A stretch of 64,000 bases of DNA, from IMG/VR virus record IMGVR_UViG_3300029267_004155. One strand, given 5' to 3'. The position numbers and the translations under genes are program-made. The stretch's first letter is position 1. Every line of letters starts with the position of its first letter. This document shows, one piece after another, positions 36,323 to 46,366 of the stretch. Below the pieces are notes generated by a model. That model searched no databases. It worked only from the letters and a program-made list of their open reading frames with translations, and was not told the origin of the DNA. The DNA is from a virus (Duplodnaviria > Caudoviricetes).

Positions 36323-36352
36323 TTGGCAAGTCGGCGCCCGAGGGTGTATAAT
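36323..36352 (+). promoter_or_regulatory. Sigma70-like promoter of tRNA operon 1
   Basis: TTGGCA-18 nt-TATAAT with extended TG. Confidence 0.7.
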
Positions 36353-36420
36353 GGGATTTTGGACGACGGGTGAGGGTCCTGGCCAATTCCAGGGCTGGAC
36401 CCCACAAACCGAGAGAGACG

Positions 36421-36510
36421 ATGGACAAGCAGAGTCGCAACCTGATGTTGGCATGTTGTGGGCGGGGATATTCCTCGTTCCGCCTTACGCCTGCGTCCGG
36501 GCTGCGTTGA
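36421..36510 (+). CDS. Attenuator leader peptide 1 (MDKQSRNLMLACCGRGYSSFRLTPASGLR)
   Basis: Codons match operon-1 tRNAs; its 3' end contains the antiterminator strand. Confidence 0.8.
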   Translation: MDKQSRNLMLACCGRGYSSFRLTPASGLR

Positions 36511-36562
36511 CGCTCGTCGAAGCCCCTAGGCCCCCGGACGCGAAAGCCTCCGGGGGTTTTTC
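36493..36562 (+). terminator. Attenuator 1 antiterminator/terminator switch
   Basis: GCGTCCGGG (36493-36501) is complementary to terminator 5' arm CCCGGACGC (36533-36541); hairpin + U-tract. Confidence 0.85.
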
Positions 36563-36569
36563 TGTTTCT

Positions 36570-36669: not shown

Positions 36670-36754
36670 GGCCCAGTGGCGGAATTGGCATACGCGCCCG
36701 ATTCAAAATCGGGTCCCTTCGGGGATGGGAGTTCGACTCTCCCCTGGGCTACCA
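36670..36754 (+). tRNA. tRNA-Leu(CAA)
   Basis: Cloverleaf, CCA. Confidence 0.92.
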
Positions 36755-36816
36755 GCAACAAATGGAACGAGATAGCGAGTCCGGGATCGAGAGAAGGAGA
36801 TGATCGACGACGAGAT

Positions 36817-36902
36817 GCGTCGGCTGAGCATTTGGCGAGCTCCCCGGTCTGTAAAATCGGCGCCTTCGGGCTTTGATGGTTCGACTCCATCTCGGCGCAC
36901 CA
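36817..36902 (+). tRNA. tRNA-Tyr(GUA)
   Basis: Cloverleaf, variable arm, CCA. Confidence 0.85.
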
Positions 36903-36915
36903 ACAACTGAACAGT

Positions 36916-37002
36916 GGTCCCGTGCCGGAATTGGCATACGGCCCCGGTTGAGGGCCGGGGGCCCGAGAGGGCGTGGGAGTTCGAGTCTCCCCGGGGTCAC
37001 CA
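36916..37002 (+). tRNA. tRNA-Leu(GAG)
   Basis: Cloverleaf, CCA. Confidence 0.9.
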
Positions 37003-37010
37003 GGAATCAT

Positions 37011-37101
37011 GGAGAGCATCCGGCCGGATGAGGAGCGCGTTTCGAAAGCGCGTAGGTCCCGGGAACGGGGCTTCGGAGTTCGAGTCTCCGGCTCTCCGCC
37101 A
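37011..37101 (+). tRNA. tRNA-Ser(CGA)
   Basis: Cloverleaf, long variable arm, GCCA. Confidence 0.85.
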
Positions 37102-37199
37102 AGATGTGGACCGGGGCTTCAAACCTCGGTGCAACCCATTAACGTCTTGTGGGGTATGCAAAGGCGTGACTTCGCCGGGTGGAGAGAACCCGGCAACAA

Positions 37200-37285
37200 G
37201 CCCGGGTGGTGGAATTGGCAGACACGCTGCGCTCAGACCGCAGTGCCGAAAGGCGGTGAGGGTTCGACTCCCTCCTCGGGCACCA
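37200..37285 (+). tRNA. tRNA-Leu(CAG)
   Basis: Cloverleaf, CCA. Confidence 0.92.
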
Positions 37286-37294
37286 GATTTAGAC

Positions 37295-37371
37295 GCAGTG
37301 GTAGCTCAGCCAGGTAGAGCTTCCGCCTTCCAAGCGGAAGGTCGCGCGTTCGATTCGCGTCCACTGCACCA
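37295..37371 (+). tRNA. tRNA-Gly(UCC)
   Basis: Cloverleaf, CCA. Confidence 0.9.
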
Positions 37372-37387
37372 TTGATAGGAGGAAGGA

Positions 37388-37564
37388 GTGAGGGCGCCAA
37401 ACTCGGTGATACGCGAGCGACTTGACCGTTGGTGCAAGCCGTGTCGTAAGATGGACGCCAAGGCGATGGTGTGCTTGGTGGAGAGGTGCAACGTCAGACG
37501 AAAGGCGTCGTTGGCAGAAGAGTCGTGCCCGATGGGTTTCTGGGGGAAGTACGAGGAGATTTGA
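37388..37564 (+). CDS. Small Cys-rich protein (DUF6171-like) inside the tRNA array
   Basis: ERLDRWCKPC...C....C...K....SCPMGFW; AGGAGG RBS; below the ORF-track size cutoff. Confidence 0.55.
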   Translation: MRAPNSVIRERLDRWCKPCRKMDAKAMVCLVERCNVRRKASLAEESCPMGFWGKYEEI

Positions 37565-37569
37565 ATAGT

Positions 37570-37660
37570 GGAGAGCGTCCGGATGGACGAGGAGTCGGTT
37601 TGCTAAACCGGTAGGCCCTGGAAACGGGGTTTCGGGGTTCGATTCCCCGGCTCTCCGCCA
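37570..37660 (+). tRNA. tRNA-Ser(GCU)
   Basis: Cloverleaf, long variable arm, GCCA. Confidence 0.87.
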
Positions 37661-37738
37661 AAGATTGTGTCCCGACCGGTGCTCGGGCTTGGCAGCCCGA
37701 CGGGTCCAAACGCCCGGCCAGAACTGGAAGGGACTTTC

Positions 37739-37815
37739 GGTGAGGTAGCTCAGTCCGGTAGAGCACTCGGTTGAAGCCCGAGGCGTCGTTGGTTCGATTC
37801 CGACTCTCACCACCA
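37739..37815 (+). tRNA. tRNA-Phe(GAA)
   Basis: Cloverleaf, CCA. Confidence 0.9.
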
Positions 37816-37820
37816 ATTTG

Positions 37821-37904
37821 GCCCGAGTGGCGGAATGGCAGACGCGGCCGGTTTAAGTTCGGCTGTCGAAAGGCGTGCAGGTTCGATCCCTGTCTCGGGC
37901 ACCA
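37821..37904 (+). tRNA. tRNA-Leu(UAA)
   Basis: Cloverleaf, CCA. Confidence 0.9.
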
Positions 37905-37942
37905 AGGTGTAGCAGTGTAGCAGTGTAGCAAAGGAGATTTTT

Positions 37943-38018
37943 GGCGGGGTGGCTGAGAGGTTTAGGCGCGCGGTTGCAACCCGCGTTCATGAGGGTTCGA
38001 GTCCCTCCCCCGTCTCCA
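37943..38018 (+). tRNA. tRNA-Cys(GCA)
   Basis: Cloverleaf, U73, CCA. Confidence 0.9.
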
Positions 38019-38025
38019 TTTTCGA

Positions 38026-38196
38026 TGAGGCCGTCCACCTAATGGCAAGGGCCGGAGCGGAGCGCCGCATAGCCCGTCGAGGCGCAAGCGCGACGGGTGA
38101 CGCCTGCGAGTCCAAAGGGCTGTGACATGGCCAGCCACGCGGGCTGCGGAATGGGCAGGACGCACCGGGATGCGGGTTCGAGTCCCGTCGGCTTCA
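38026..38196 (+). ncRNA. tRNA-like RNA with ~105-nt structured insert replacing the anticodon loop
   Basis: Acceptor TGAGGCCG/CGGCTTCA, D-like loop TAATGGCAAG, T arm GCGGGTTCGAGTCCCGT. Confidence 0.6.
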
Positions 38197-38204
38197 GACT
38201 TTGA

Positions 38205-38295
38205 GGAGAGCATCCGGCTGCATGAGGAGCGCCGTTGGAAACGGCGTCGGTCCGGGAAACCGGGCTTCGGGGTTGGAGTCCCCGGCTCTCCGCCA
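38205..38295 (+). tRNA. tRNA-Ser(GGA), atypical D/T loops
   Basis: Cloverleaf, GCCA. Confidence 0.82.
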
Positions 38296-38327
38296 GTATG
38301 TTAAGGGCAACCCAAAGGAGGTTGCTG

Positions 38328-38993
38328 ATGAAGATCGAGGGCTGTCGGGTGGCCGCGGCGATGGTCGTCTATCACACCTACGGCCTGATGAGGAAGGCGG
38401 TGGCGTCGGTGAGGAGGTTCTATCCGGACATCGACTTCTTCGTGGTGGACAACACCGAGGGGGTCGCTCCGAGGAACGTCAGGAAATGGGCGAAGAGGAA
38501 CCGGGTGAGGCTTATCCGGGTGGGGTCCAACATCGGCCATGGGCCGGGGATGAACGTGGCGCTGTGGGCGACGGAGGCCGACGTGCTGCTGATGCTGGAC
38601 AGCGATACGGAGATGTACGAGCCGAACTTGCTGGAGGACGCCCTGGCGAAGGTCGGGGGCCGGAAGACCAGGTGGTACGGGATAGGGCCGGTCGCGCCGG
38701 TGAAAAGGCCGGTGGGAGGCGAGAAGGTTTCGTACCTTCATTCGTCGACGTGCCTCTTCCATGTCGGGTACTATCGGCGGTTCGAGCCGTTCACGGACCA
38801 CGGGCTTGCGCTGGTGGCGCCGATGTACGAGCTGAGGGTCAAGAGGATGGAGTCGATGCTGGTGGACTTCCCGGTCCAGGACTACGTGCATCACCTCTGG
38901 AGAGGAACCAGGGACTTTTGCAGGGGCCACCAGCTGGACAGGTCTTACGAAAGCCGGAAGTCGGCCTCCTGGTGGGAGCCTGGGAAGTTTTGA
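38328..38993 (+). CDS. Glycosyltransferase family 2
   Basis: VVDN, NIGHGPGMN, LMLDSD. Confidence 0.85.
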   Translation: MKIEGCRVAAAMVVYHTYGLMRKAVASVRRFYPDIDFFVVDNTEGVAPRNVRKWAKRNRVRLIRVGSNIGHGPGMNVALWATEADVLLMLDSDTEMYEPNLLEDALAKVGGRKTRWYGIGPVAPVKRPVGGEKVSYLHSSTCLFHVGYYRRFEPFTDHGLALVAPMYELRVKRMESMLVDFPVQDYVHHLWRGTRDFCRGHQLDRSYESRKSASWWEPGKF

Positions 38994-38999
38994 TAATGA

Positions 39000-39077
39000 G
39001 CGCCCGTAGCTCAGTCTGAATAGAGCGCCCCGCTACGGACGGGGAAGTCGCAGGTTTGAATCCTGCCGGGCGTGCCA
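39000..39077 (+). tRNA. tRNA-Arg(ACG)
   Basis: Cloverleaf; A19/U56 variant. Confidence 0.88.
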
Positions 39078-39084
39078 ACTTTGA

Positions 39085-39160
39085 GGACCTGTAGTTCAGT
39101 TGGAAGAACATCGGTCTCCGAAGCCGAAGGTCGCGGGTTCGAGTCCCGCCGGGTCCTCCA
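39085..39160 (+). tRNA. tRNA-Arg(CCG)
   Basis: Cloverleaf, CCA. Confidence 0.9.
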
Positions 39161-39167
39161 GAATTAT

Positions 39168-39244
39168 CCGTCTGTAGCTCAGTTGGTTAGAGCGGTCGTC
39201 TCATACGCGACAGGTTGTAGGTTCGATCCCTACCAGACGGACCA
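39168..39244 (+). tRNA. tRNA-Met(CAU), elongator-type
   Basis: Cloverleaf, paired 1-72, CCA. Confidence 0.85.
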
Positions 39245-39347
39245 TCCTCTTTGAAGACGGGCCTCTGGCGGTGTACAATAGGCCAGGAGGTGCGCCGCGA
39301 GGCTTGAGGCGAGGTGACGATCGACGACTACGAGAAGGAGCGGGGCG

Positions 39348-39971
39348 ATGACGGGAGTGCTTGACAGGCGGGTCCTGGTGCTTGACGGCTCGTGGAGGCC
39401 GGTGGACGTGACGAACGTGGTCGGGGCCCTGTGCAAGGTGTGCGCGGGGAAGGCCGACGTCGTCGACAATGACTACTCCCTCTACGGCTTCGAGGAGTGG
39501 GTCGAGAGCTGGTCCGACGCGGCCAGGGCCGCGGAGATGGCCGAGTCGGGGCGCCCCCTCGTGCGTTCCAGGAGCTTCGCCTTCCCGGCGCCGGAGGTCA
39601 TCCGGCTCGTCCGGAAGGTCCGCTTCTGGCGTCGTCGGGCCAAGCTCTGCCGGAAGGCGATCTTCGCCCGCGACCGGAACGTCTGTCAGTACTGCGGCAA
39701 GAAGCTGCCGGCCTCCAAGCTCAACATCGACCACGTGGTCCCCAAGTCCAGGGGTGGAGGCACGACCTGGGAGAACCTGGTTCTCTCGTGCGTGAGGTGC
39801 AACCACAAGAAGGACAGCCGGACGCCCAGGGAGGCGGGCCTGACGCTCCTGAGGGAGCCGAGGGAGCCGCACTGGGCCGTCGTCAACAGGCGTGGCATCC
39901 TGAGGGACCCTCCCAGGTCGTGGGAGGACTTCCTCGGCGCCATGTACTGGGACGTCGAGCTGGAGGGCTGA
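39348..39971 (+). CDS. HNH endonuclease
   Basis: IFARDRNVCQYCG...NIDHVVPKSRGGGTTWENLVLSCVRCNHKK. Confidence 0.93.
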   Translation: MTGVLDRRVLVLDGSWRPVDVTNVVGALCKVCAGKADVVDNDYSLYGFEEWVESWSDAARAAEMAESGRPLVRSRSFAFPAPEVIRLVRKVRFWRRRAKLCRKAIFARDRNVCQYCGKKLPASKLNIDHVVPKSRGGGTTWENLVLSCVRCNHKKDSRTPREAGLTLLREPREPHWAVVNRRGILRDPPRSWEDFLGAMYWDVELEG

Positions 39972-40048
39972 CGGGCCGGTTCTCGGAAAAATCTCCGAGG
40001 GGGCTGGTAAGACTGGCGTTGACGGCGTATGATAATAGGCAAGGAGCA

Positions 40049-40129
40049 ATGTACTCAATGAACCCGATGGCCAGACACGAAGCGATCGAGCAGCCCGCGA
40101 ACGCGGGTGCCGGGGGTGCTGTGTTCTGA
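40049..40129 (+). CDS. Attenuator leader peptide 2 (MYSMNPMARHEAIEQPANAGAGGAVF)
   Basis: AAGGAG RBS; TATGATAAT upstream; codons match operon-2 tRNAs. Confidence 0.82.
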   Translation: MYSMNPMARHEAIEQPANAGAGGAVF

Positions 40130-40186
40130 CCCTGATAGGTCCAAGGACCCCCGGCACCCCGAAAAGGGCGTCGGGGGTTTTTCTTT
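40105..40186 (+). terminator. Attenuator 2 antiterminator/terminator switch
   Basis: GGGTGCCGGGGGT (40105-40117) is a perfect 13-bp complement of ACCCCCGGCACCC (40147-40159); hairpin + U-tract. Confidence 0.9.
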
Positions 40187-40222
40187 GGAGTCGAGAGAAG
40201 GAGGGCGAGTCACGAGCAGGAC

Positions 40223-40300
40223 GGGCCGGTAGCTCAGTTGGCTAAGAGCACCTGACTTGCAATCAGGATGTCCAGGGTTCGATCCCCTGTCGGTCCACCA
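40223..40300 (+). tRNA. tRNA-Ala(UGC)
   Basis: Cloverleaf, G3:U70, CCA. Confidence 0.92.
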
Positions 40301-40311
40301 ACAATTCAGAT

Positions 40312-40389
40312 GCGCCTCGGAGCTCGGTCAGGAAGAGCGCCCGGTCGTGGCCCGGGAGGCCGCGGGTTCGAGTCCCGTCGGGGCGCCCA
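40312..40389 (+). tRNA. tRNA-His(GUG)
   Basis: 8-bp acceptor with G-1:C73; C33. Confidence 0.85.
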
Positions 40390-40398
40390 GGATCATGC

Positions 40399-40476
40399 GG
40401 TGGCGTAGCTTAGTTGGCCGAAAGCGCTGTCCTGTCACGGCAGAGAACGAGGGTTCAAATCCCTTCGTCACCGCCA
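40399..40476 (+). tRNA. tRNA-Asp(GUC)
   Basis: Cloverleaf, GCCA. Confidence 0.9.
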
Positions 40477-40483
40477 ATATCAC

Positions 40484-40559
40484 GGCCACGTAGCTCAGCG
40501 GCAGGAGCGTCCGGTCCACACCCGGATGGTCGAAGGTTCGAGTCCTTCCGTGGTCACCA
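40484..40559 (+). tRNA. tRNA-Val(CAC)
   Basis: Cloverleaf; C33. Confidence 0.87.
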
Positions 40560-40565
40560 GTTCGA

Positions 40566-40639
40566 TGCCCGGTGGTGTAATGGCAGCACAGCTGGTTCTG
40601 GCCCAGTCGGTCAGGGTTCGAGTCCTTGCCGGGCAGCCA
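40566..40639 (+). tRNA. tRNA-Gln(CUG)
   Basis: Cloverleaf, U1-A72. Confidence 0.9.
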
Positions 40640-40647
40640 GATATCGA

Positions 40648-40724
40648 GCGCCCGTAGCTCAGGGGATACGAGCAGCGCACTTCTAATGCGCGGGTCGAAG
40701 GTTCGAATCCTTCCGGGCGTGCCA
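40648..40724 (+). tRNA. tRNA-Arg(UCU)
   Basis: Cloverleaf, GCCA. Confidence 0.9.
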
Positions 40725-40726
40725 AT

Positions 40727-40803
40727 GGGCGGTTAGTTCAGATGGCTAGAACGTCAGCTCGACATGCTGAAGGTTGCGAGTTCGAGTCTCGCACCGCCCA
40801 CCA
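40727..40803 (+). tRNA. tRNA-Val(GAC)
   Basis: Cloverleaf; C33. Confidence 0.88.
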
Positions 40804-40834
40804 TCAGTCAAGGAGAGAGGCGAGAGCAACATGT

Positions 40835-40911
40835 CGGCCCATAGCTCAGTTGGTAAGAGCGAACGGCTGATAACCGTTAGGTCGGAGGTTCGATTCCTCC
40901 TGGGCCGACCA
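40835..40911 (+). tRNA. tRNA-Ile(GAU)
   Basis: Cloverleaf, CCA. Confidence 0.92.
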
Positions 40912-40925
40912 ACAATTGAATATGT

Positions 40926-41000
40926 GTCCCCATCGTCTAGCGGCCAGGATGCGAGGCCCTCAACCTCGTGACGCCGGTTCGAGTCCGGCTGGGGATGCCA
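40926..41000 (+). tRNA. tRNA-Glu(CUC)
   Basis: Cloverleaf, GCCA. Confidence 0.9.
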
Positions 41001-41112
41001 GGATTGAGGGCTGCAATATGGCCGGAAAGCAAGTCGCGGGCTTTGCCGAGTTCCAAGACGCGCAGAAGCGGGTAGACGGCAGTCCTGGGGGAGCGGCAAA
41101 CTCCCCCGAACT

Positions 41113-41189
41113 CGGGATGTGGCTCAGTCTGGTAGAGCGTCCGGCTGGGGGCCGGAAGGTCGCAGGTTCGATTCCTGCCATCCCGACCA
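41113..41189 (+). tRNA. tRNA-Pro(GGG)
   Basis: Cloverleaf, C1-G72. Confidence 0.92.
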
Positions 41190-41199
41190 TAGACTTGAG

Positions 41200-41278
41200 A
41201 GCGGGGTGAATGTCGATTTGGTAAGACGCCAGGCTCATAACCTGGAGCATGTGGGTTCAACTCCCACCCCCGCCACCA
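41200..41278 (+). tRNA. Initiator-like tRNA-fMet(CAU)
   Basis: A1.C72 mismatch, TTCAA T loop, irregular D arm. Confidence 0.75.
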
Positions 41279-41343
41279 ATATCGGGACGTGACGAGCGGT
41301 TTGACTCCGTCGCCTGAAGCGTGAATGGGCAAGCGTCCCACTT

Positions 41344-41418
41344 GGCCCCATCGTCTAGTGGCAAGGACGTCGGGTTTTCATCCCGGAGACGGGGGTTCGA
41401 TTCCCCCTGGGGCTACCA
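41344..41418 (+). tRNA. tRNA-Glu(UUC)
   Basis: Cloverleaf, CCA. Confidence 0.9.
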
Positions 41419-41426
41419 GTTTTAGA

Positions 41427-41498
41427 TGGCCCGTAGCTCAGCGGTAGAGCATGCGACTCATAATTGCGGGGTCCTCGGTTCAATCCCGAGCGGGCCAA
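41427..41498 (+). tRNA. tRNA with CAU anticodon (probable Ile2), no encoded CCA
   Basis: Cloverleaf; ends ACTA. Confidence 0.75.
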
Positions 41499-41667
41499 CT
41501 AGTTTTTTGTTGCGATGATGGCCGGTACCGGCGAGGGAAAGTCATCAGATGGGCGCCAACCGGGTATTGCTCGGAAGAAGGCACTGTCGGAAATCGGTGG
41601 TGGGGTGACGTCCGAAGCCGCCGTTCGCCGACGCCCGTTCCGTCTGGCGGCGGCCGCGACATCTTAT

Positions 41668-41744
41668 CGGGATGTGGCTCAGTCTGGTAGAGCGCCTCGT
41701 TCGGGGCGAGGAAGCCGGAGGTTCAAATCCTCTCATCCCGACCA
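41668..41744 (+). tRNA. tRNA-Pro(CGG)
   Basis: Cloverleaf, CCA. Confidence 0.92.
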
Positions 41745-41749
41745 GTTTT

Positions 41750-41826
41750 CGGGCGGTGGCGCAGTTTGGAAGCGCGCGGCGTTTGGGGCGCTGAGGTCGC
41801 CGGTTCGAGCCCGGCCCGCCCGACCA
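41750..41826 (+). tRNA. tRNA-Pro(UGG)
   Basis: Cloverleaf, CCA. Confidence 0.9.
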
Positions 41827-42006
41827 GTCTCGGGATGTGTCCAGACGTGGAGAAACTGGACCGCAAAAACAAAAAACTCTCGCAGTAACGAGACCCGAAA
41901 GGGATAGGAAGTGAGGAAACTGCGTCAACAACACTCGGCCTCCGTAGCTCTGGGCGCTTACACCTACGGACCTTTTCGCAGGCAGGAAGATGGAGGAAGA
42001 CGATTG

Positions 42007-42894
42007 ATGGACCTGATAGTGGAAACCGACATCGGGCACGATCCCGACGACTACTTCACGCTGTGCCACCTGCACGCCGCGGGTGTCAGGATCAGGGCGA
42101 TCCTCGTCTCTCCCGGACACCGGTACCAGGTCGCCATCGCGAGGGCCTTCTGCGCGGAGGTCGGCCTGGATGTCCCTGTCGGGATCGCGAAGGAGACGAG
42201 CGTCGTCAAGACCGGAGGGACGTCGTTCCACATGGCGCTCCTGAGGAAGATGGGACATCCGACCGAGGCGGACCCCGACGGCTTCGGCCACGAGCTTCTG
42301 GGCGGGGTTCTCGAGGACCATCCGGACAGCGACGTCTTCATCTGCGGGCCGGTGAAGAACGTGGGCCGCTACATGATCGAGCATCCGGAGAGGGAGTTCG
42401 GGCGGGTCACGATGCAGGGTGGCTTTCTGGGATACGACCTTCATGGCCATGACGTCGAGAGGCTTCCCAAGTTCAAGGGCAAGGTGGCCGTGCCTACCTT
42501 CAACTTGAACGGGTCGAAGGACGAGGGCTTGTTCCTGGCGTCGCGGGCGAAGGTCGGGGACCTGAGGTTCGTCGGCAAGAACGTCTGTCACACGATCCTG
42601 TACGACAGGGCGAGGCACGAGTGGATGAGGCGCAGGAAGCCTTCCTGCCGGGCGATGGAGCTGTTCATGGAAGGCATGGACCTCTATCTCTACGGGAAGA
42701 GGCACCGGGAGAAGAAGTTCCACGACCCGACCGCTGCCGTGTGCCATCTGCATCCCGAGATCGGGACCTGGGTTGGCGGAAGGTTGTACCGGGAGGGAGG
42801 CTGGTGGGGGACGAAGGTCGAGGAGGGGACGAACACCAGGGTCTTGGCCGATGTTGACCGGGAGGGGCTTTGGGACTTTATCAGAGGGTGTTAG
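42007..42894 (+). CDS. Inosine/uridine-preferring nucleoside hydrolase family protein
   Basis: ETDIGHDPDD, GPVKN, MQGG, TFN, FHDP motifs. Confidence 0.85.
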   Translation: MDLIVETDIGHDPDDYFTLCHLHAAGVRIRAILVSPGHRYQVAIARAFCAEVGLDVPVGIAKETSVVKTGGTSFHMALLRKMGHPTEADPDGFGHELLGGVLEDHPDSDVFICGPVKNVGRYMIEHPEREFGRVTMQGGFLGYDLHGHDVERLPKFKGKVAVPTFNLNGSKDEGLFLASRAKVGDLRFVGKNVCHTILYDRARHEWMRRRKPSCRAMELFMEGMDLYLYGKRHREKKFHDPTAAVCHLHPEIGTWVGGRLYREGGWWGTKVEEGTNTRVLADVDREGLWDFIRGC

Positions 42895-42913
42895 GGCCCG
42901 TCCGGCCATGGAT

Positions 42914-42987
42914 TGCCCCGTGGTGTAATGGCAGCACAAGTGTCTTTGGAGCACTCGGTTCTGGTTCGAGTCCAGGCGGGGCAGCCA
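42914..42987 (+). tRNA. tRNA-Gln(UUG)
   Basis: Cloverleaf, GCCA. Confidence 0.9.
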
Positions 42988-43049
42988 TCTCCTGGGCGCG
43001 GGCAGGCCGGGGCCGGCCTCGATCCCCGTCGGAAAAACCGAGAGGTCGC

Positions 43050-43078
43050 TTGGCAAATTCGGGCGAGCGGCGTATAAT
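43050..43078 (+). promoter_or_regulatory. Sigma70-like promoter of tRNA operon 3
   Basis: TTGGCA-17 nt-TATAAT. Confidence 0.75.
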
Positions 43079-43102
43079 AAGGCAACGAAAGGCAACTACG
43101 TC

Positions 43103-43186
43103 ATGCTGACGGGAACCACAACGAAAGACAATACCTGGGGCGGCAAGCCCGCCCACGGGGGTCTTTCGCTTGGAGTTCAAGCGTAG
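43103..43186 (+). CDS. Attenuator leader peptide 3 (MLTGTTTKDNTWGGKPAHGGLSLGVQA)
   Basis: GAAAGG RBS; codons match operon-3 tRNAs. Confidence 0.8.
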   Translation: MLTGTTTKDNTWGGKPAHGGLSLGVQA

Positions 43187-43243
43187 ACGGTGGCGAGCGC
43201 GCTGTGAGACCCCCGGCCCGAAAGGGCGCGGGGGTTTTTCTTT
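43156..43243 (+). terminator. Attenuator 3 antiterminator/terminator switch
   Basis: CGGGGGTCT (43156-43164) is complementary to AGACCCCCG (43207-43215); GAAA-loop hairpin + U-tract. Confidence 0.85.
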
Positions 43244-43319
43244 GCGGCAGTAGCTCAGTCGGAAGAGCACCTGCTTGCCAAGCAGGAGGCCACGGGTTCG
43301 AGCCCCGTCTGTCGCACCA
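43244..43319 (+). tRNA. tRNA-Gly(GCC)
   Basis: Cloverleaf, CCA. Confidence 0.9.
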
Positions 43320-43330
43320 GGTTTCATGAT

Positions 43331-43407
43331 AGGTCCGTAGCTCAATCGGCTAGAGCACCGGTCTCCAAAACCGGCGGTTCTCGGTTCGACCCCGAGCGGG
43401 CCTGCCA
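43331..43407 (+). tRNA. tRNA-Trp(CCA)
   Basis: Cloverleaf, GCCA. Confidence 0.92.
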
Positions 43408-43411
43408 AGAA

Positions 43412-43487
43412 CGGCTCGTAGCTCAGTTGGTAGAGCATCCGCCTTTTAAGCGGAACGCCGAGGGTTCGAGTCCCTCCGAGCCGACCA
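43412..43487 (+). tRNA. tRNA-Lys(UUU)
   Basis: Cloverleaf, CCA. Confidence 0.92.
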
Positions 43488-43568
43488 GAAATTCGGAGCG
43501 AGTGGAAAACCTTGCTCGTTCGGCAATGTAGGGTGGAGACGAGGTTCAACAGAAGGAGATGTGATCGA

Positions 43569-43642
43569 GGTTCCGTAGCTTAGAGGTAGAGCGGGCGGCT
43601 CGGACCGCGTGGCCGCAGGTTCGAGCCCTGCCGGGACCTCCA
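43569..43642 (+). tRNA. Aberrant tRNA with 6-nt anticodon loop (CTCGGA; possibly Arg(UCG)-derived)
   Basis: Intact acceptor, D and T arms and CCA; short anticodon loop. Confidence 0.6.
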
Positions 43643-43663
43643 ACTCGACAGGAGAGTCTATTC

Positions 43664-43740
43664 GCACCCGTAGCTCAGTTGGCTAGAGCGGCTGACTCTT
43701 AATCAGCAGGTTCTCGGTTCGAACCCGAGCGGGTGTGCCA
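43664..43740 (+). tRNA. tRNA-Lys(CUU)
   Basis: Cloverleaf, GCCA. Confidence 0.92.
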
Positions 43741-43751
43741 ACAATTCAGAT

Positions 43752-43847
43752 GCCGATGTGGTGTAATGGTAGCACACCGGGTAAACCGGAGGTTTTCCTC
43801 GATCAGCGCGCGTAGTCGAGGCGGTTCAAGTCCAGACATCGGCTCCA
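43752..43847 (+). ncRNA. Thr-like tRNA derivative with shortened anticodon arm and extra hairpin
   Basis: GCCGATG/CATCGGC-TCCA acceptor; CCGG-GTAAA-CCGG; inserted CCTCGA...TCGAGG stem. Confidence 0.6.
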
Positions 43848-43965
43848 ACAACTTAGGCGACACCTGCCTGTCCGAAGAAGGTCCGGCGACGAGCGGGGAC
43901 GAACCCGTGGACGACCAGGCTGGAGGAGAAGTGGTGTGACTCGGGTGAGAGCAGGCCCGCATTAA

Positions 43966-44042
43966 GCCCGGATAGCTCAGTGGCTAAGAGCAGCCGATTC
44001 GTAATCGGCAGGTCGAGGGTTCGAGTCCCTCTCTGGGCTCCA
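43966..44042 (+). tRNA. tRNA-Thr(CGU)
   Basis: Cloverleaf, CCA. Confidence 0.92.
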
Positions 44043-44045
44043 GAC

Positions 44046-44119
44046 TCCCCCATGGTGTAATGGTAGCACGTAGGACTGTTAATCCTTTGGTCCTGGTTCG
44101 AGTCCAGGTGGGGGAACCA
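44046..44119 (+). tRNA. tRNA-Asn(GUU)
   Basis: Cloverleaf, CCA. Confidence 0.9.
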
Positions 44120-44169: not shown

Positions 44170-45612
44170 ATGAAGAGGGAAGAGACGATTCGGAAGCTGT
44201 ACGAGTGCGTTCAGACGCGTCCGCGTCCGGAGGATGTTGCCGAGGTCGTGCTGGAGGCATTGCTTCCGCGGCTGTCGCTGGCCCAGAGGAACGTCTTGAA
44301 GCAGGCGACCAGGATCTCGACGAGGAGCCACCTCCTGGGCTACTCGTCCATGGCCGCGGACTTCCATCGCCCGACGGGCATGGAGAAGCCGGTCAAGGTG
44401 GCGTCCGAGCTCTTCTCCGTTCCGATGCTGTCGGTGGAGGAGTGCCTCGACCCGGAGAGGGTGGAGGTCTTCGTCCAGGGCGTGTCGTCGGCCATCGGCA
44501 AGAGCTACGGGCAGTCCGACTTCCTGAAGCACCGGATGAACCGGGAGCAGCGGGCGCAGGCGGGCCTCGACATGGGGCACCGCGCCTACAACAAGCGCTT
44601 CAGGCTCCTGGGCCGGATGGAGTCCAAGCTCCTGAGGATGGTCCGCGAGCGGAAGAAGTACGTCCTGACCCGGATCGGCAAGAGCGGCTTCGCCGTGGAG
44701 ATCGACTTCGACGACTTCTCCGCCGACCTGGGCACGGCCTGCTTCGTGGCGTACATGAGCGCGAGGATGAGCCTTCGGAGCACCTTCACGAACGACTCCC
44801 AGGTTCGGGCCTTCGACGTGGTGGCCAAGATGCTGTACGACCGCCTGACCAAGTCCAACACGGCCAGGTGGGACGTCGTGGCCGCCGTCTATCCGGTGGA
44901 CAGGGTCCTGAGGCTCCTGACGGACTACCAGAAGGGCGCCATGCTCGCGAGGGCGTGGGGTCTCCTGGAGGACGCGTGCGACCTTCTCACGGAGGTCTGG
45001 GAGGGTTCCGGCGGCGGCATCGACCTGGAGAGGATGGTGGTGCGGCGCGGGTGCGACTCGTCGACGTGGAACCAGTCGGCCGGCGGGTGGAACAAGGCCC
45101 GGGACCACTGGGTGTCGATGCTTCACGCCATGGGCATGGGCTCCATGCTTGAGGCCCTGTGCCCGGGCAAGGTCATGAGGCTGATGGCGGCGGACGTGGT
45201 CCGTTGGCACCTGGCCTCGGGCGGCGACGTCCATCCGGGGACCAAGGTGTGGGCTGAGCTTCCGTACCCGTGGGACGTCGTCGCGGGCAAGGAGCGGTGC
45301 ACGAAGGAGATGGTGGTGGCCGCGTGCGAGAGGCACGGCGTCGAGCCGGCGTCCTGGGTCGGGCCGAGGAGGCGTGCCCGGGCCGTGGAGTTCACGCCGA
45401 CCCCCGAGCTGGTGCACGGCGTCGCCGTGTCGAGCCCGGGACTGGCTCTCGCCCTGCGGAGGGCCGGGGTCTTCTCGGCCAAGGCCCTCAGGGCCGAGCA
45501 TCTCCCGGCCGGCGGCTTCCATGTCGACAGGGACGGCGACGGCTTCGCGCTCGGGGCGACCGACGCGAATTCTCACGGGTCGGGCCGGAAGGTCCGGGCC
45601 GCGGGCGTATAG
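44170..45612 (+). CDS. 480-aa helical protein of unknown function at the end of the tRNA array
   Basis: AGGAGG RBS; motif-rich C-terminus (DSSTWN, CPGKVMRLMAADV, PTPELVHGV). Confidence 0.8.
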   Translation: MKREETIRKLYECVQTRPRPEDVAEVVLEALLPRLSLAQRNVLKQATRISTRSHLLGYSSMAADFHRPTGMEKPVKVASELFSVPMLSVEECLDPERVEVFVQGVSSAIGKSYGQSDFLKHRMNREQRAQAGLDMGHRAYNKRFRLLGRMESKLLRMVRERKKYVLTRIGKSGFAVEIDFDDFSADLGTACFVAYMSARMSLRSTFTNDSQVRAFDVVAKMLYDRLTKSNTARWDVVAAVYPVDRVLRLLTDYQKGAMLARAWGLLEDACDLLTEVWEGSGGGIDLERMVVRRGCDSSTWNQSAGGWNKARDHWVSMLHAMGMGSMLEALCPGKVMRLMAADVVRWHLASGGDVHPGTKVWAELPYPWDVVAGKERCTKEMVVAACERHGVEPASWVGPRRRARAVEFTPTPELVHGVAVSSPGLALALRRAGVFSAKALRAEHLPAGGFHVDRDGDGFALGATDANSHGSGRKVRAAGV

Positions 45613-45625
45613 TAGGAGTGGATGC

Positions 45626-45787
45626 AGGTGTGTAGCTCAGTGGTAGAGCGTCCCGGCTCTTTTTCCGGGAGGACGCAGGTTCGAGCCCTGCCTCACCTGC
45701 CAATCTTGTCTCGACGTAGCTCAGTGGTAGAGCGTCCCGGCTCTTTTTCCGGGAGGACGCAGGTTCGAGCCCTGTCGTTCGAGGCCA
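45626..45787 (+). ncRNA. Two tandem near-identical tRNA-like RNAs with an 8-nt CUCUUUUU loop
   Basis: 59-nt duplication (45632-45690 and 45716-45774); both end in GCCA. Confidence 0.7.
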
Positions 45788-46366
45788 TTTGGTTTTCGAC
45801 CCCTGTCGGTTCGACTCCGACGTCCGGCTCCTATACTAGTTGCACGGGAGGCGGCCACACCGGTTGGAAGGGTGGGCCCGGGGGTCTTTCTTGACGTCCC
45901 CGGCTCAATGGAGAGCTGGGCACTTGTGGCGCCCAGACGCCAGTTCGATTCTGGCAGGGGCTCCATCCTCCGTTCCGCGTCCCTGGTCCGAGCCCGAGGG
46001 CAGGCCGCGTCTTTCTTCTCCTCCTTGGCGGCGTATAATCCCATGACGAATCATGGAGGGCGCTGACGACGTAGAATGGGATGGAGAGCTTTGCGGACTG
46101 GTGGCGGTAGCCAGAGAGCGAGAACAAGGAGATGCGAGATGATCTATCGGGGCAAATGGTTCACGGTGAGGGTCGAGGAGCTGGCGGAGGTTGGCGTCTC
46201 GACGTCGCAGGGGAACAAGGGTGAGGTCGTGCGCGGGCTGCACGTGACGCACAGGTCGGGGACGCAGAACCGGACGTCTTACGCCGACGAGGCGGAGCTC
46301 ATGAGGGACTACGAGGGGCTCGCCGCGGCCATGGAGAAGGTGGACGACAAGTAGGAGGGGAGAGCC

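Follow-up and report, generated by a model that had tools for sequence, protein, structure and literature searches.

A putative leader-peptide attenuator ahead of a tRNA gene block on a probable giant phage

The window analysed here, a stretch of 64 kb of DNA, carries an array of 38 tRNA genes called by ARAGORN. They all lie on the plus strand between 36.6 and 45.8 kb, and 35 of them are confirmed by Rfam. The blocks of this array (36670-44119) are sorted roughly by the first codon letter: UNN codons (Leu, Tyr, Ser, Phe, Cys) predominate in block 1, CNN and GNN codons predominate in block 2, and block 3 is devoted to ANN codons (Lys, Asn, Thr) along with those of Trp and Gly. A tRNA gene at 41200-41275 was missed by ARAGORN and scores 44.7 bits with Rfam; because of its CAU anticodon and its unpaired first acceptor-stem pair it is possibly of the initiator type. 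When strict wobble rules are applied to the tRNAs found in the window, 11 sense codons (ACA, ACC, ACT, ATA, CTA, GCC, GCT, GTA, TCA, TCC and TCT) are left unread. In 43 long ORFs they account for about 10% of all codons, and all 20 amino acids are still covered. In the surroundings of the array we found genes for an HNH endonuclease, glycosyltransferases, a nucleoside-hydrolase-like protein, an NAD-dependent ligase, a CobT/VWA and MoxR-type ATPase pair and an intein-bearing protein. Since an identical copy of a 480-aa protein encoded behind block 3 is present on a 298-kb contig, and relatives of this protein occur on viral contigs of 100-570 kb, the carrier of the element is probably a giant phage.

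Block 3 consists of eight tRNA or tRNA-like genes on the plus strand, which lie behind the element that is the subject of this study, Att3. Its canonical members, all of them detected by both ARAGORN and Rfam, are tRNA-Gly(GCC) (43244-43319; Rfam 72.3 bits), tRNA-Trp(CCA) (43331-43407), tRNA-Lys(UUU) (43412-43487), tRNA-Lys(CUU) (43664-43740), tRNA-Thr(CGU) (43966-44042), besides which no Thr tRNA was found in the 64-kb window, and tRNA-Asn(GUU) (44046-44119), which concludes the block. The remaining genes are unusual. The one at 43569-43642 has a 6-nt anticodon loop and belongs to a conserved family of odd tRNAs, and the one at 43752-43847 is a deformed tRNA-like gene of class II (Ser/Leu-like) build, in which the anticodon loop has 5 nt, 33 nt are inserted and the T stem, of 2 bp, is broken.

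Downstream of block 3, on the same strand, lies the gene for the 480-aa protein, a conserved helical protein (44170-45612) for which no Pfam or PHROG family and no Atlas lead was found. Its predicted structure is confident (pLDDT 82), and fold searches with this model gave no match (Foldseek E of at least 0.29; best VIA Z 6.4 over 76 residues). The closest homologues, P0002 and P0003, share 69% and 63% identity with it. In 44 of 45 bacterial genome loci, in all 14 metagenome loci and in 5 of the 10 viral loci with full flanks (loci L002-L177), one or two tRNA-like genes lie behind the gene at a distance of up to about 100 nt, and they mostly receive a 4-base 'anticodon' call, equivalent to an 8-nt loop. 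In phages the gene resides inside tRNA arrays, and in bacteria it occurs without other tRNAs. The 480-aa protein and the odd tRNA form a conserved module. The odd tRNA genes of the window (43569-43642, 45626-45702 and 45709-45787) have a near-invariant tRNA body in common with relatives from many phyla, among them the genes adjacent to homologues of the 480-aa protein. In this family the acceptor stems vary freely and the anticodon loop measures 6, 7 or 8 nt, the block 3 member being of the 6-nt type. From 43243 to about 45848 no strong terminator was found, and the transcription unit of Att3 may therefore extend over the 480-aa gene and the odd tRNA-like genes at 45626-45787. The stretch behind the odd tRNA pair (45800-45960) contains pieces resembling tRNA T arms, as well as a hairpin with a U-tract (45848-45888, -16 kcal/mol), and may represent the end of that unit.

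Att3 is a compact part of 160 nt on the plus strand. It begins with a sigma-70-type promoter (TTGGCA-17 nt-TATAAT, 43050-43078) that matches the consensus at 11 of 12 positions. Only two promoter sites of such quality occur within 12 kb, this one and another that heads the sibling element Att1, and transcription of Att3 would start near 43085. Just behind the promoter there is a short ORF with a start codon, as is typical of leader attenuators, which runs over 27 codons from ATG to TAG (43103-43186; stop codon at 43184). By inspection of the sequence, the Shine-Dalgarno-like motif of this ORF (GAAAGG, 43087-43092, 10 nt 5' of the ATG) is weak, and it is both weaker and more distant from the start than the AAGGAGG ahead of the gene at 44170. 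Likewise in keeping with leader attenuators, an intrinsic terminator separates the leader from the tRNA genes. Its hairpin (43206-43238, termed segments 3 and 4) has 13-14 pairs and a predicted energy of -25 to -27 kcal/mol, and the U-tract (43234-43243) ends one base ahead of tRNA-Gly. The classical target class of such elements, i.e. genes for amino acid biosynthesis, transport or synthetases, is absent behind Att3.

The leader ORF contains a cluster of regulatory codons for the amino acids concerned, again in line with known attenuators. Its codons 3-15 (43109-43147), ACG GGA ACC ACA ACG AAA GAC AAT ACC TGG GGC GGC AAG, encode TGTTTKDNTWGGK, i.e. five Thr, three Gly, two Lys, Asn, Trp and one Asp. 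The initial annotation had pointed out that 12 of these 13 codons specify amino acids whose tRNAs lie in block 3, and this observation holds. With the exception of Asp, all residues are served by canonical block 3 tRNAs (Thr, Gly, Lys, Asn, Trp), and among 105,190 stop-free windows of 13 codons in the six frames of the 64-kb window no other one reaches 12 matches. The runners-up have 11 matches, and all of them are either overlapping windows or Gly/Thr repeats. Based on the amino acid frequencies of the phage (0.227 for the five combined), the binomial probability of 12 matches in 13 is about 2e-7. The match is also specific to the frame, as 15 of 26 residues are served by block 3 in the frame of the ORF, and 6 of 26 in each of the other frames.

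At the level of codons, the correspondence is looser. No block 3 tRNA reads GGA, ACC (present twice), ACA or GAC, which together are five of the 13 control codons, and therefore a feedback through this leader would be imperfect at the codon level. Coverage of every anticodon by a leader codon is uninformative for Att3 (P = 0.97, synonymous resampling). Taken as a group, the leaders have more rare codons than expected (27 of 79 versus 10.2). This excess could raise the sensitivity of the leaders or only reflect constraints on RNA structure, and it may just as well indicate that normal coding selection does not act on the ORF.

Att3 RNA can adopt alternative folds. Segment 1 (43113-43129), inside codons 4-9, is the 5' strand of a 1:2 helix, and the entire 1:2 domain (43113-43178) has a fold energy of -34.1 kcal/mol. 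Enclosed in this domain is a GC-rich hairpin (43134-43158), followed by a U-rich stretch, which is a possible polymerase pause hairpin. Segment 2 (43156-43178) has two roles: its positions 43161-43178 pair with segment 1, and 43156-43165 are the antiterminator strand, which forms a 10-bp 2:3 helix with 43206-43215. The helices are mutually exclusive, with -34.1 kcal/mol for 1:2, -22.4 kcal/mol for the 2:3 duplex and -26.7 kcal/mol for 3:4. Thus, an antiterminator pairing and a 1:2 helix that overlaps the regulatory codons, further hallmarks of leader attenuators, are present as well. The antiterminator pairing of Att3 (-23.8 kcal/mol) is stronger than in dinucleotide shuffles of the leader (-16.9 +/- 2.6 kcal/mol, P = 0.014). 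The same test on the sibling elements gave P = 0.036 for Att1 and P < 0.001 for Att2, which has the strongest pairing (-33.1 kcal/mol). Part of segment 2 (43161-43168) can engage in an 8-bp pairing with either codons 7-9 (43122-43129) or the Shine-Dalgarno region (43086-43093); the latter pairing might shut off re-initiation on read-through transcripts.

We then placed a ribosome on the leader in silico by masking its footprint. Without a ribosome, the full Att3 transcript folds as 1:2 plus terminator. When a ribosome is placed on codon 10 or 12, the minimum-energy fold of the full-length RNA retains the 2:3 helix, and the terminator is lost. Blocking of the antiterminator is limited to A-site positions on codons 15-26 (pairing 0.2-0.57). 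With the ribosome at the stop codon the pairing is back to 0.66, since the antiterminator strand lies 19-28 nt 5' of the stop (43184), and the full-length fold is again 1:2 plus terminator. Accordingly, the trp-type detail of a ribosome at the stop codon that masks segment 2 is absent in Att3; it is present in Att2 and in L002a. Footprint-masked folds of seven elements, including those described below, gave a common picture: the antiterminator is intact with the ribosome on the matched codons and broken when the ribosome is further along.

Two sibling elements reside in the same array, Att1 (36323-36567), whose leader matches block 1, and Att2 (about 40000-40186), whose leader matches block 2. 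The three elements can be aligned at the promoter, at the G-rich core of segment 2 and at the terminator, and their coding parts differ. The match between each leader and its own block amounts to 0.54, 0.68 and 0.58 for Att1, Att2 and Att3, respectively, versus off-diagonal values of 0.20-0.38. Distant relatives, fetched with a profile of the flanking 480-aa protein (38-54% identity), revealed the same layout ahead of tRNA blocks for five elements in three distant phages of very different G+C content (L061 2905-3041 and 7666-7822; L002 1599-1716 and 7369-7489; L005 5701-5866). One leader of L002, with the core RRPQPQQPRR, precedes Pro, Gln and Arg tRNAs, and the other one, rich in Met, Asp, Arg, Thr, Ala and Ile, is found ahead of the tRNAs for these amino acids. 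In L061, an Ile/Asp/Ala leader, IDTDIIDAIAADAA, stands ahead of Ile, Ala, Ile and Asp tRNAs, and the leader RHEEREHGERH ahead of Arg, His and Glu tRNAs. The leader of L005, ahead of Met, Thr and Ile tRNAs, is a weaker case. When all eight leaders are compared with all eight blocks, the own block ranks first in six cases and second in two (permutation p = 5e-5). In seven of the eight elements the match is confined to the frame that opens with the start codon and stops ahead of the terminator.

Closer counterparts of Att3 were not among the loci fetched. An IMG/VR search with two flanking proteins and the CobT-like protein yielded nothing close, the one match (L001) being devoid of tRNAs, and none of the 175 loci found with the profile of the 480-aa protein has the layout of block 3. 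Locus L017 carries a cluster of Lys, Lys, Gln, Thr(UGU) and Asn tRNA genes without a leader, and its tRNAs are only 0.6-0.7 identical. A scan of IMG/VR for the terminator pattern gave 102 matches, none of them ahead of a tRNA.

It is reasonable to propose, with a probability of roughly 75%, that Att3 gates tRNA block 3 by ribosome-mediated (leader-peptide) attenuation of transcription, as the initial annotation had put forward; the 480-aa gene further behind may be under its control as well. According to this model, transcription would begin at the Att3 promoter, and the 27-codon leader would be translated as the polymerase advances. If codons 3-15 are decoded fast, the ribosome would run over segment 2, the 1:2 helix would re-form behind it and the 3:4 terminator could form, so that the transcript would end at the U-tract just 5' of tRNA-Gly. 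If, on the other hand, any of the control codons is decoded slowly, the stalled ribosome would cover segment 1 and leave segment 2 free to pair with segment 3; no terminator would form, and the tRNA block would be transcribed. The outcome would be a negative feedback on the supply of the tRNAs under control, which acts per amino acid and not per single anticodon. We infer that the leader is translated, and likewise the timing of these steps and the cause of the slow decoding.

It is important to note that a ribosome at the stop codon leaves the antiterminator strand uncovered. Termination in the unstalled state must therefore rest on a 1:2 helix that re-forms behind the ribosome before segment 3 emerges, or on tight coupling of ribosome and polymerase. 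This agrees with a caveat raised at the outset, namely that control would have to be kinetic. The assumption on timing and the weak Shine-Dalgarno-like motif, 10 nt from the ATG, are among the weak points of the attenuator model. The parts of Att3, its alternative pairings and the frame- and block-specific match can be read directly from the DNA. Together with the exclusive helices and the recurrence in paralogues and distant phages, the complete set of parts makes for a model that is well supported on sequence grounds.

One could argue that the ORF is untranslated, that the hairpin terminates transcription constitutively but only in part, or acts as a signal for RNA processing, and that the codon match is coincidental or compositional. 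The weak Shine-Dalgarno-like motif would be in line with this scenario, as would the wealth of rare codons in the leaders, and the abundance of A and C in the control region favours codons for Thr, Lys and Asn in one frame out of three. However, a compositional effect would hardly follow the start-to-stop frame in seven of eight elements, nor track each block's own tRNAs in four phages of very different G+C content, and the complementarity of the antiterminator exceeds that of shuffled sequences. We thus regard a silent ORF as very unlikely. Direct sensing of tRNAs by the leader RNA, in the manner of a T-box riboswitch and without translation, seems extremely improbable. The regulated genes are indeed tRNAs and the leader displays their codons, but a single RNA would need to read five kinds of tRNA. 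Furthermore, Rfam at the gathering threshold, which covers described families only, detected no family other than tRNA in the 64-kb window.

A different proposal retains the switch and changes its signal, which would be damage of host tRNAs by an anticodon nuclease rather than a general shortage. The rare codons AAA, ACA and AAU would then serve to sense the state of the host's Lys(UUU), Thr(UGU) and Asn(GUU), and read-through would turn on replacement tRNAs, the 480-aa protein and the odd tRNA-like RNAs. Indeed, block 3 groups Lys, Thr and Asn tRNAs, and AAA, ACA and AAT, which are rare in phage genes (4%, 3% and 13% of their families), all occur in the control region. On the other hand, the block offers Thr(CGU), which is unable to read ACA, Gly and Trp are likewise represented in block and leader, and the grouping of Lys, Thr and Asn may simply track the first codon letter, as in blocks 1-3. 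Damage as the signal is therefore improbable in our estimation. One may go further and speculate, at similarly long odds, that Att3 is a module of a phage system that monitors decoding by codon class and serves as a self-triggering counter-defence operon. In such a scenario, ribosomes would stall on Lys, Thr or Asn codons, e.g. once a PARIS-like anticodon nuclease has cut host tRNAs, and the operon would be switched on, providing replacement tRNAs, odd tRNA-like RNAs (with anticodon loops of 6 to 8 nt) and the helical 480-aa protein. The three kinds of tRNA grouped here, Lys, Thr and Asn, are also those targeted by AriB, the nuclease of PARIS; this is a suggestive coincidence and not evidence, and a link of Att3 to a defence nuclease is conjecture.

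The composition of the leader could also be taken as a memory of the block. As stated in the initial annotation, the leader has ACG, ACC and ACA codons and Thr(CGU) is the only intact Thr tRNA downstream. From this, it was suggested that the leader preserves a formerly larger set; ACC and ACA would then date from Thr(GGU) and Thr(UGU) genes since lost from block 3, with the gene at 43752 as one remnant. In favour of such losses, the leader holds ACC twice and ACA once, ACA accounts for only 3% of the Thr codons of the phage, and Thr(CGU), the sole Thr tRNA found in the window, reads ACG alone. In addition, the distant relative L002 possesses Thr(CGU), Thr(UGU) and Thr(GGU), and all Thr codons of its leader are cognate; L005, which is syntenic with L002, has neither Thr(GGU) nor a remnant at that place, yet its leader has retained ACC. 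Therefore, isoacceptor turnover with codon retention does occur.

For block 3, however, such a loss is unlikely. When cognate codons are counted under strict wobble, with an expectation derived from phage codon usage within the matched amino acids, 33 codons in the three leaders of the window are read by a block tRNA, versus 31.7 (sd 2.5) expected. Unread codons are found in other leaders as well: TCC occurs twice in Att1 in the absence of Ser(GGA), Att2 contains two GCC and one GCT in the absence of Ala(GGC), and the Arg/His/Glu leader of L061 contains three AGR codons, Arg(ACG) being the only Arg tRNA in its block as fetched. The tRNA set of the phage is devoid of G34 tRNAs for Thr, Ala and Ser alike, and only a C34 tRNA is available for Thr and for the UCN codons of Ser. 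Since the Thr and Ser sets have the same gaps, Thr is no oddity that would call for a loss. Moreover, ACC makes up 35% of the Thr codons of the phage, so that two ACC among five Thr codons is the level expected by chance. We found no tRNA remnant in the 81-nt gap at 43488-43568, even at E <= 10, and none at E <= 1 in the 118-nt gap at 43848-43965 (searched to 43960).

The odd genes of block 3 were considered as Thr derivatives and rejected. The gene at 43752 had been described as deformed and Thr-like. Its deformation is evident from the 5-nt anticodon loop, the 33-nt insert and the 2-bp T stem. The supposed kinship to Thr tRNAs, on the contrary, has to be given up: the identity to 21 Thr tRNAs is only 0.49-0.57, and class II Ser/Leu tRNAs come closest (0.64-0.67). 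The D arm of this gene matches the one in the Asn tRNA of the phage exactly, and those in the Gln tRNAs of the phage almost exactly. The gene at 43569 has the invariant body of the conserved odd-tRNA family instead of a Thr-derived one. With the cognate codons at the expected number and the odd genes not derived from Thr tRNAs, the notion that the leader records lost Thr isoacceptors is not supported, and the result for Att3 is a caution against treating leader codons as a record of lost anticodons.

If the attenuator model is true, the phage would measure decoding speed directly and make each set of tRNAs on demand. Att3 thus bears on the question of when and why large phages use dozens of tRNA genes. 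Such leaders would also allow one to deduce, from sequence only, which tRNAs a phage treats as one functional group.

Among known systems, the attenuators of enterobacterial amino acid operons (thr, ilvGMEDA, trp, his and pheA; for a model of pheL see PMC3082878) are most comparable in their layout, with a short promoter-proximal ORF and a cluster of regulatory codons. They also employ mutually exclusive 1:2, 2:3 antiterminator and 3:4 terminator helices, and a stalled ribosome frees segment 2. The thr leader contains Thr and Ile codons, and that of ilvGMEDA contains Ile, Leu and Val codons. Sensing of several amino acids by one leader would thus be a further trait in common with Att3. Several differences are apparent, however. 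Att3 targets tRNA genes rather than genes for biosynthetic enzymes or synthetases, and the five amino acids of its leader are the isotypes of the genes behind it. Since the output, tRNA, is itself the decoding agent, the loop would be a direct feedback on decoding capacity. Furthermore, a ribosome at the stop codon of Att3 leaves segment 2 unmasked, and the element is found on a probable phage in three paralogous copies. We have also considered the E. coli tRNA-Phe genes as a precedent for an attenuator-like leader, and rejected them on the basis of pheV, where the tRNA follows the promoter directly and a leader ORF is missing.

The long tRNA array of Anabaena sp. PCC 7120 (trn operon) is induced under translational stress (PMC8421152) and controlled by the repressor TrcR (PMC10272220). 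It resembles the array described here in that an accessory set of tRNAs is held low and comes on when translation is impaired. Yet, in Anabaena the control is exerted at the promoter, through direct repeats that are bound by the repressor protein, whereas here each block would be governed by a translated leader and a switchable terminator; an attenuator, leader or terminator is not mentioned in the trn papers (PMC8421152, PMC10272220). In phage T5, tRNA-Lys, -Thr and -Asn replace the host tRNAs that are cut by the PARIS nuclease AriB (PMC12409363). As in block 3, phage Lys, Thr and Asn tRNAs are grouped, and they are needed when host tRNAs fail; a regulatory leader is not described for the T5 tRNAs (PMC12409363). 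An account of leader-peptide attenuation of tRNA genes was not found in the full-text literature searched, which covers few subscription journals. Compared with the systems found in this literature, tRNA genes would be a new target of classical attenuation, and the level at which leader and block match is that of the amino acid, not of the codon.
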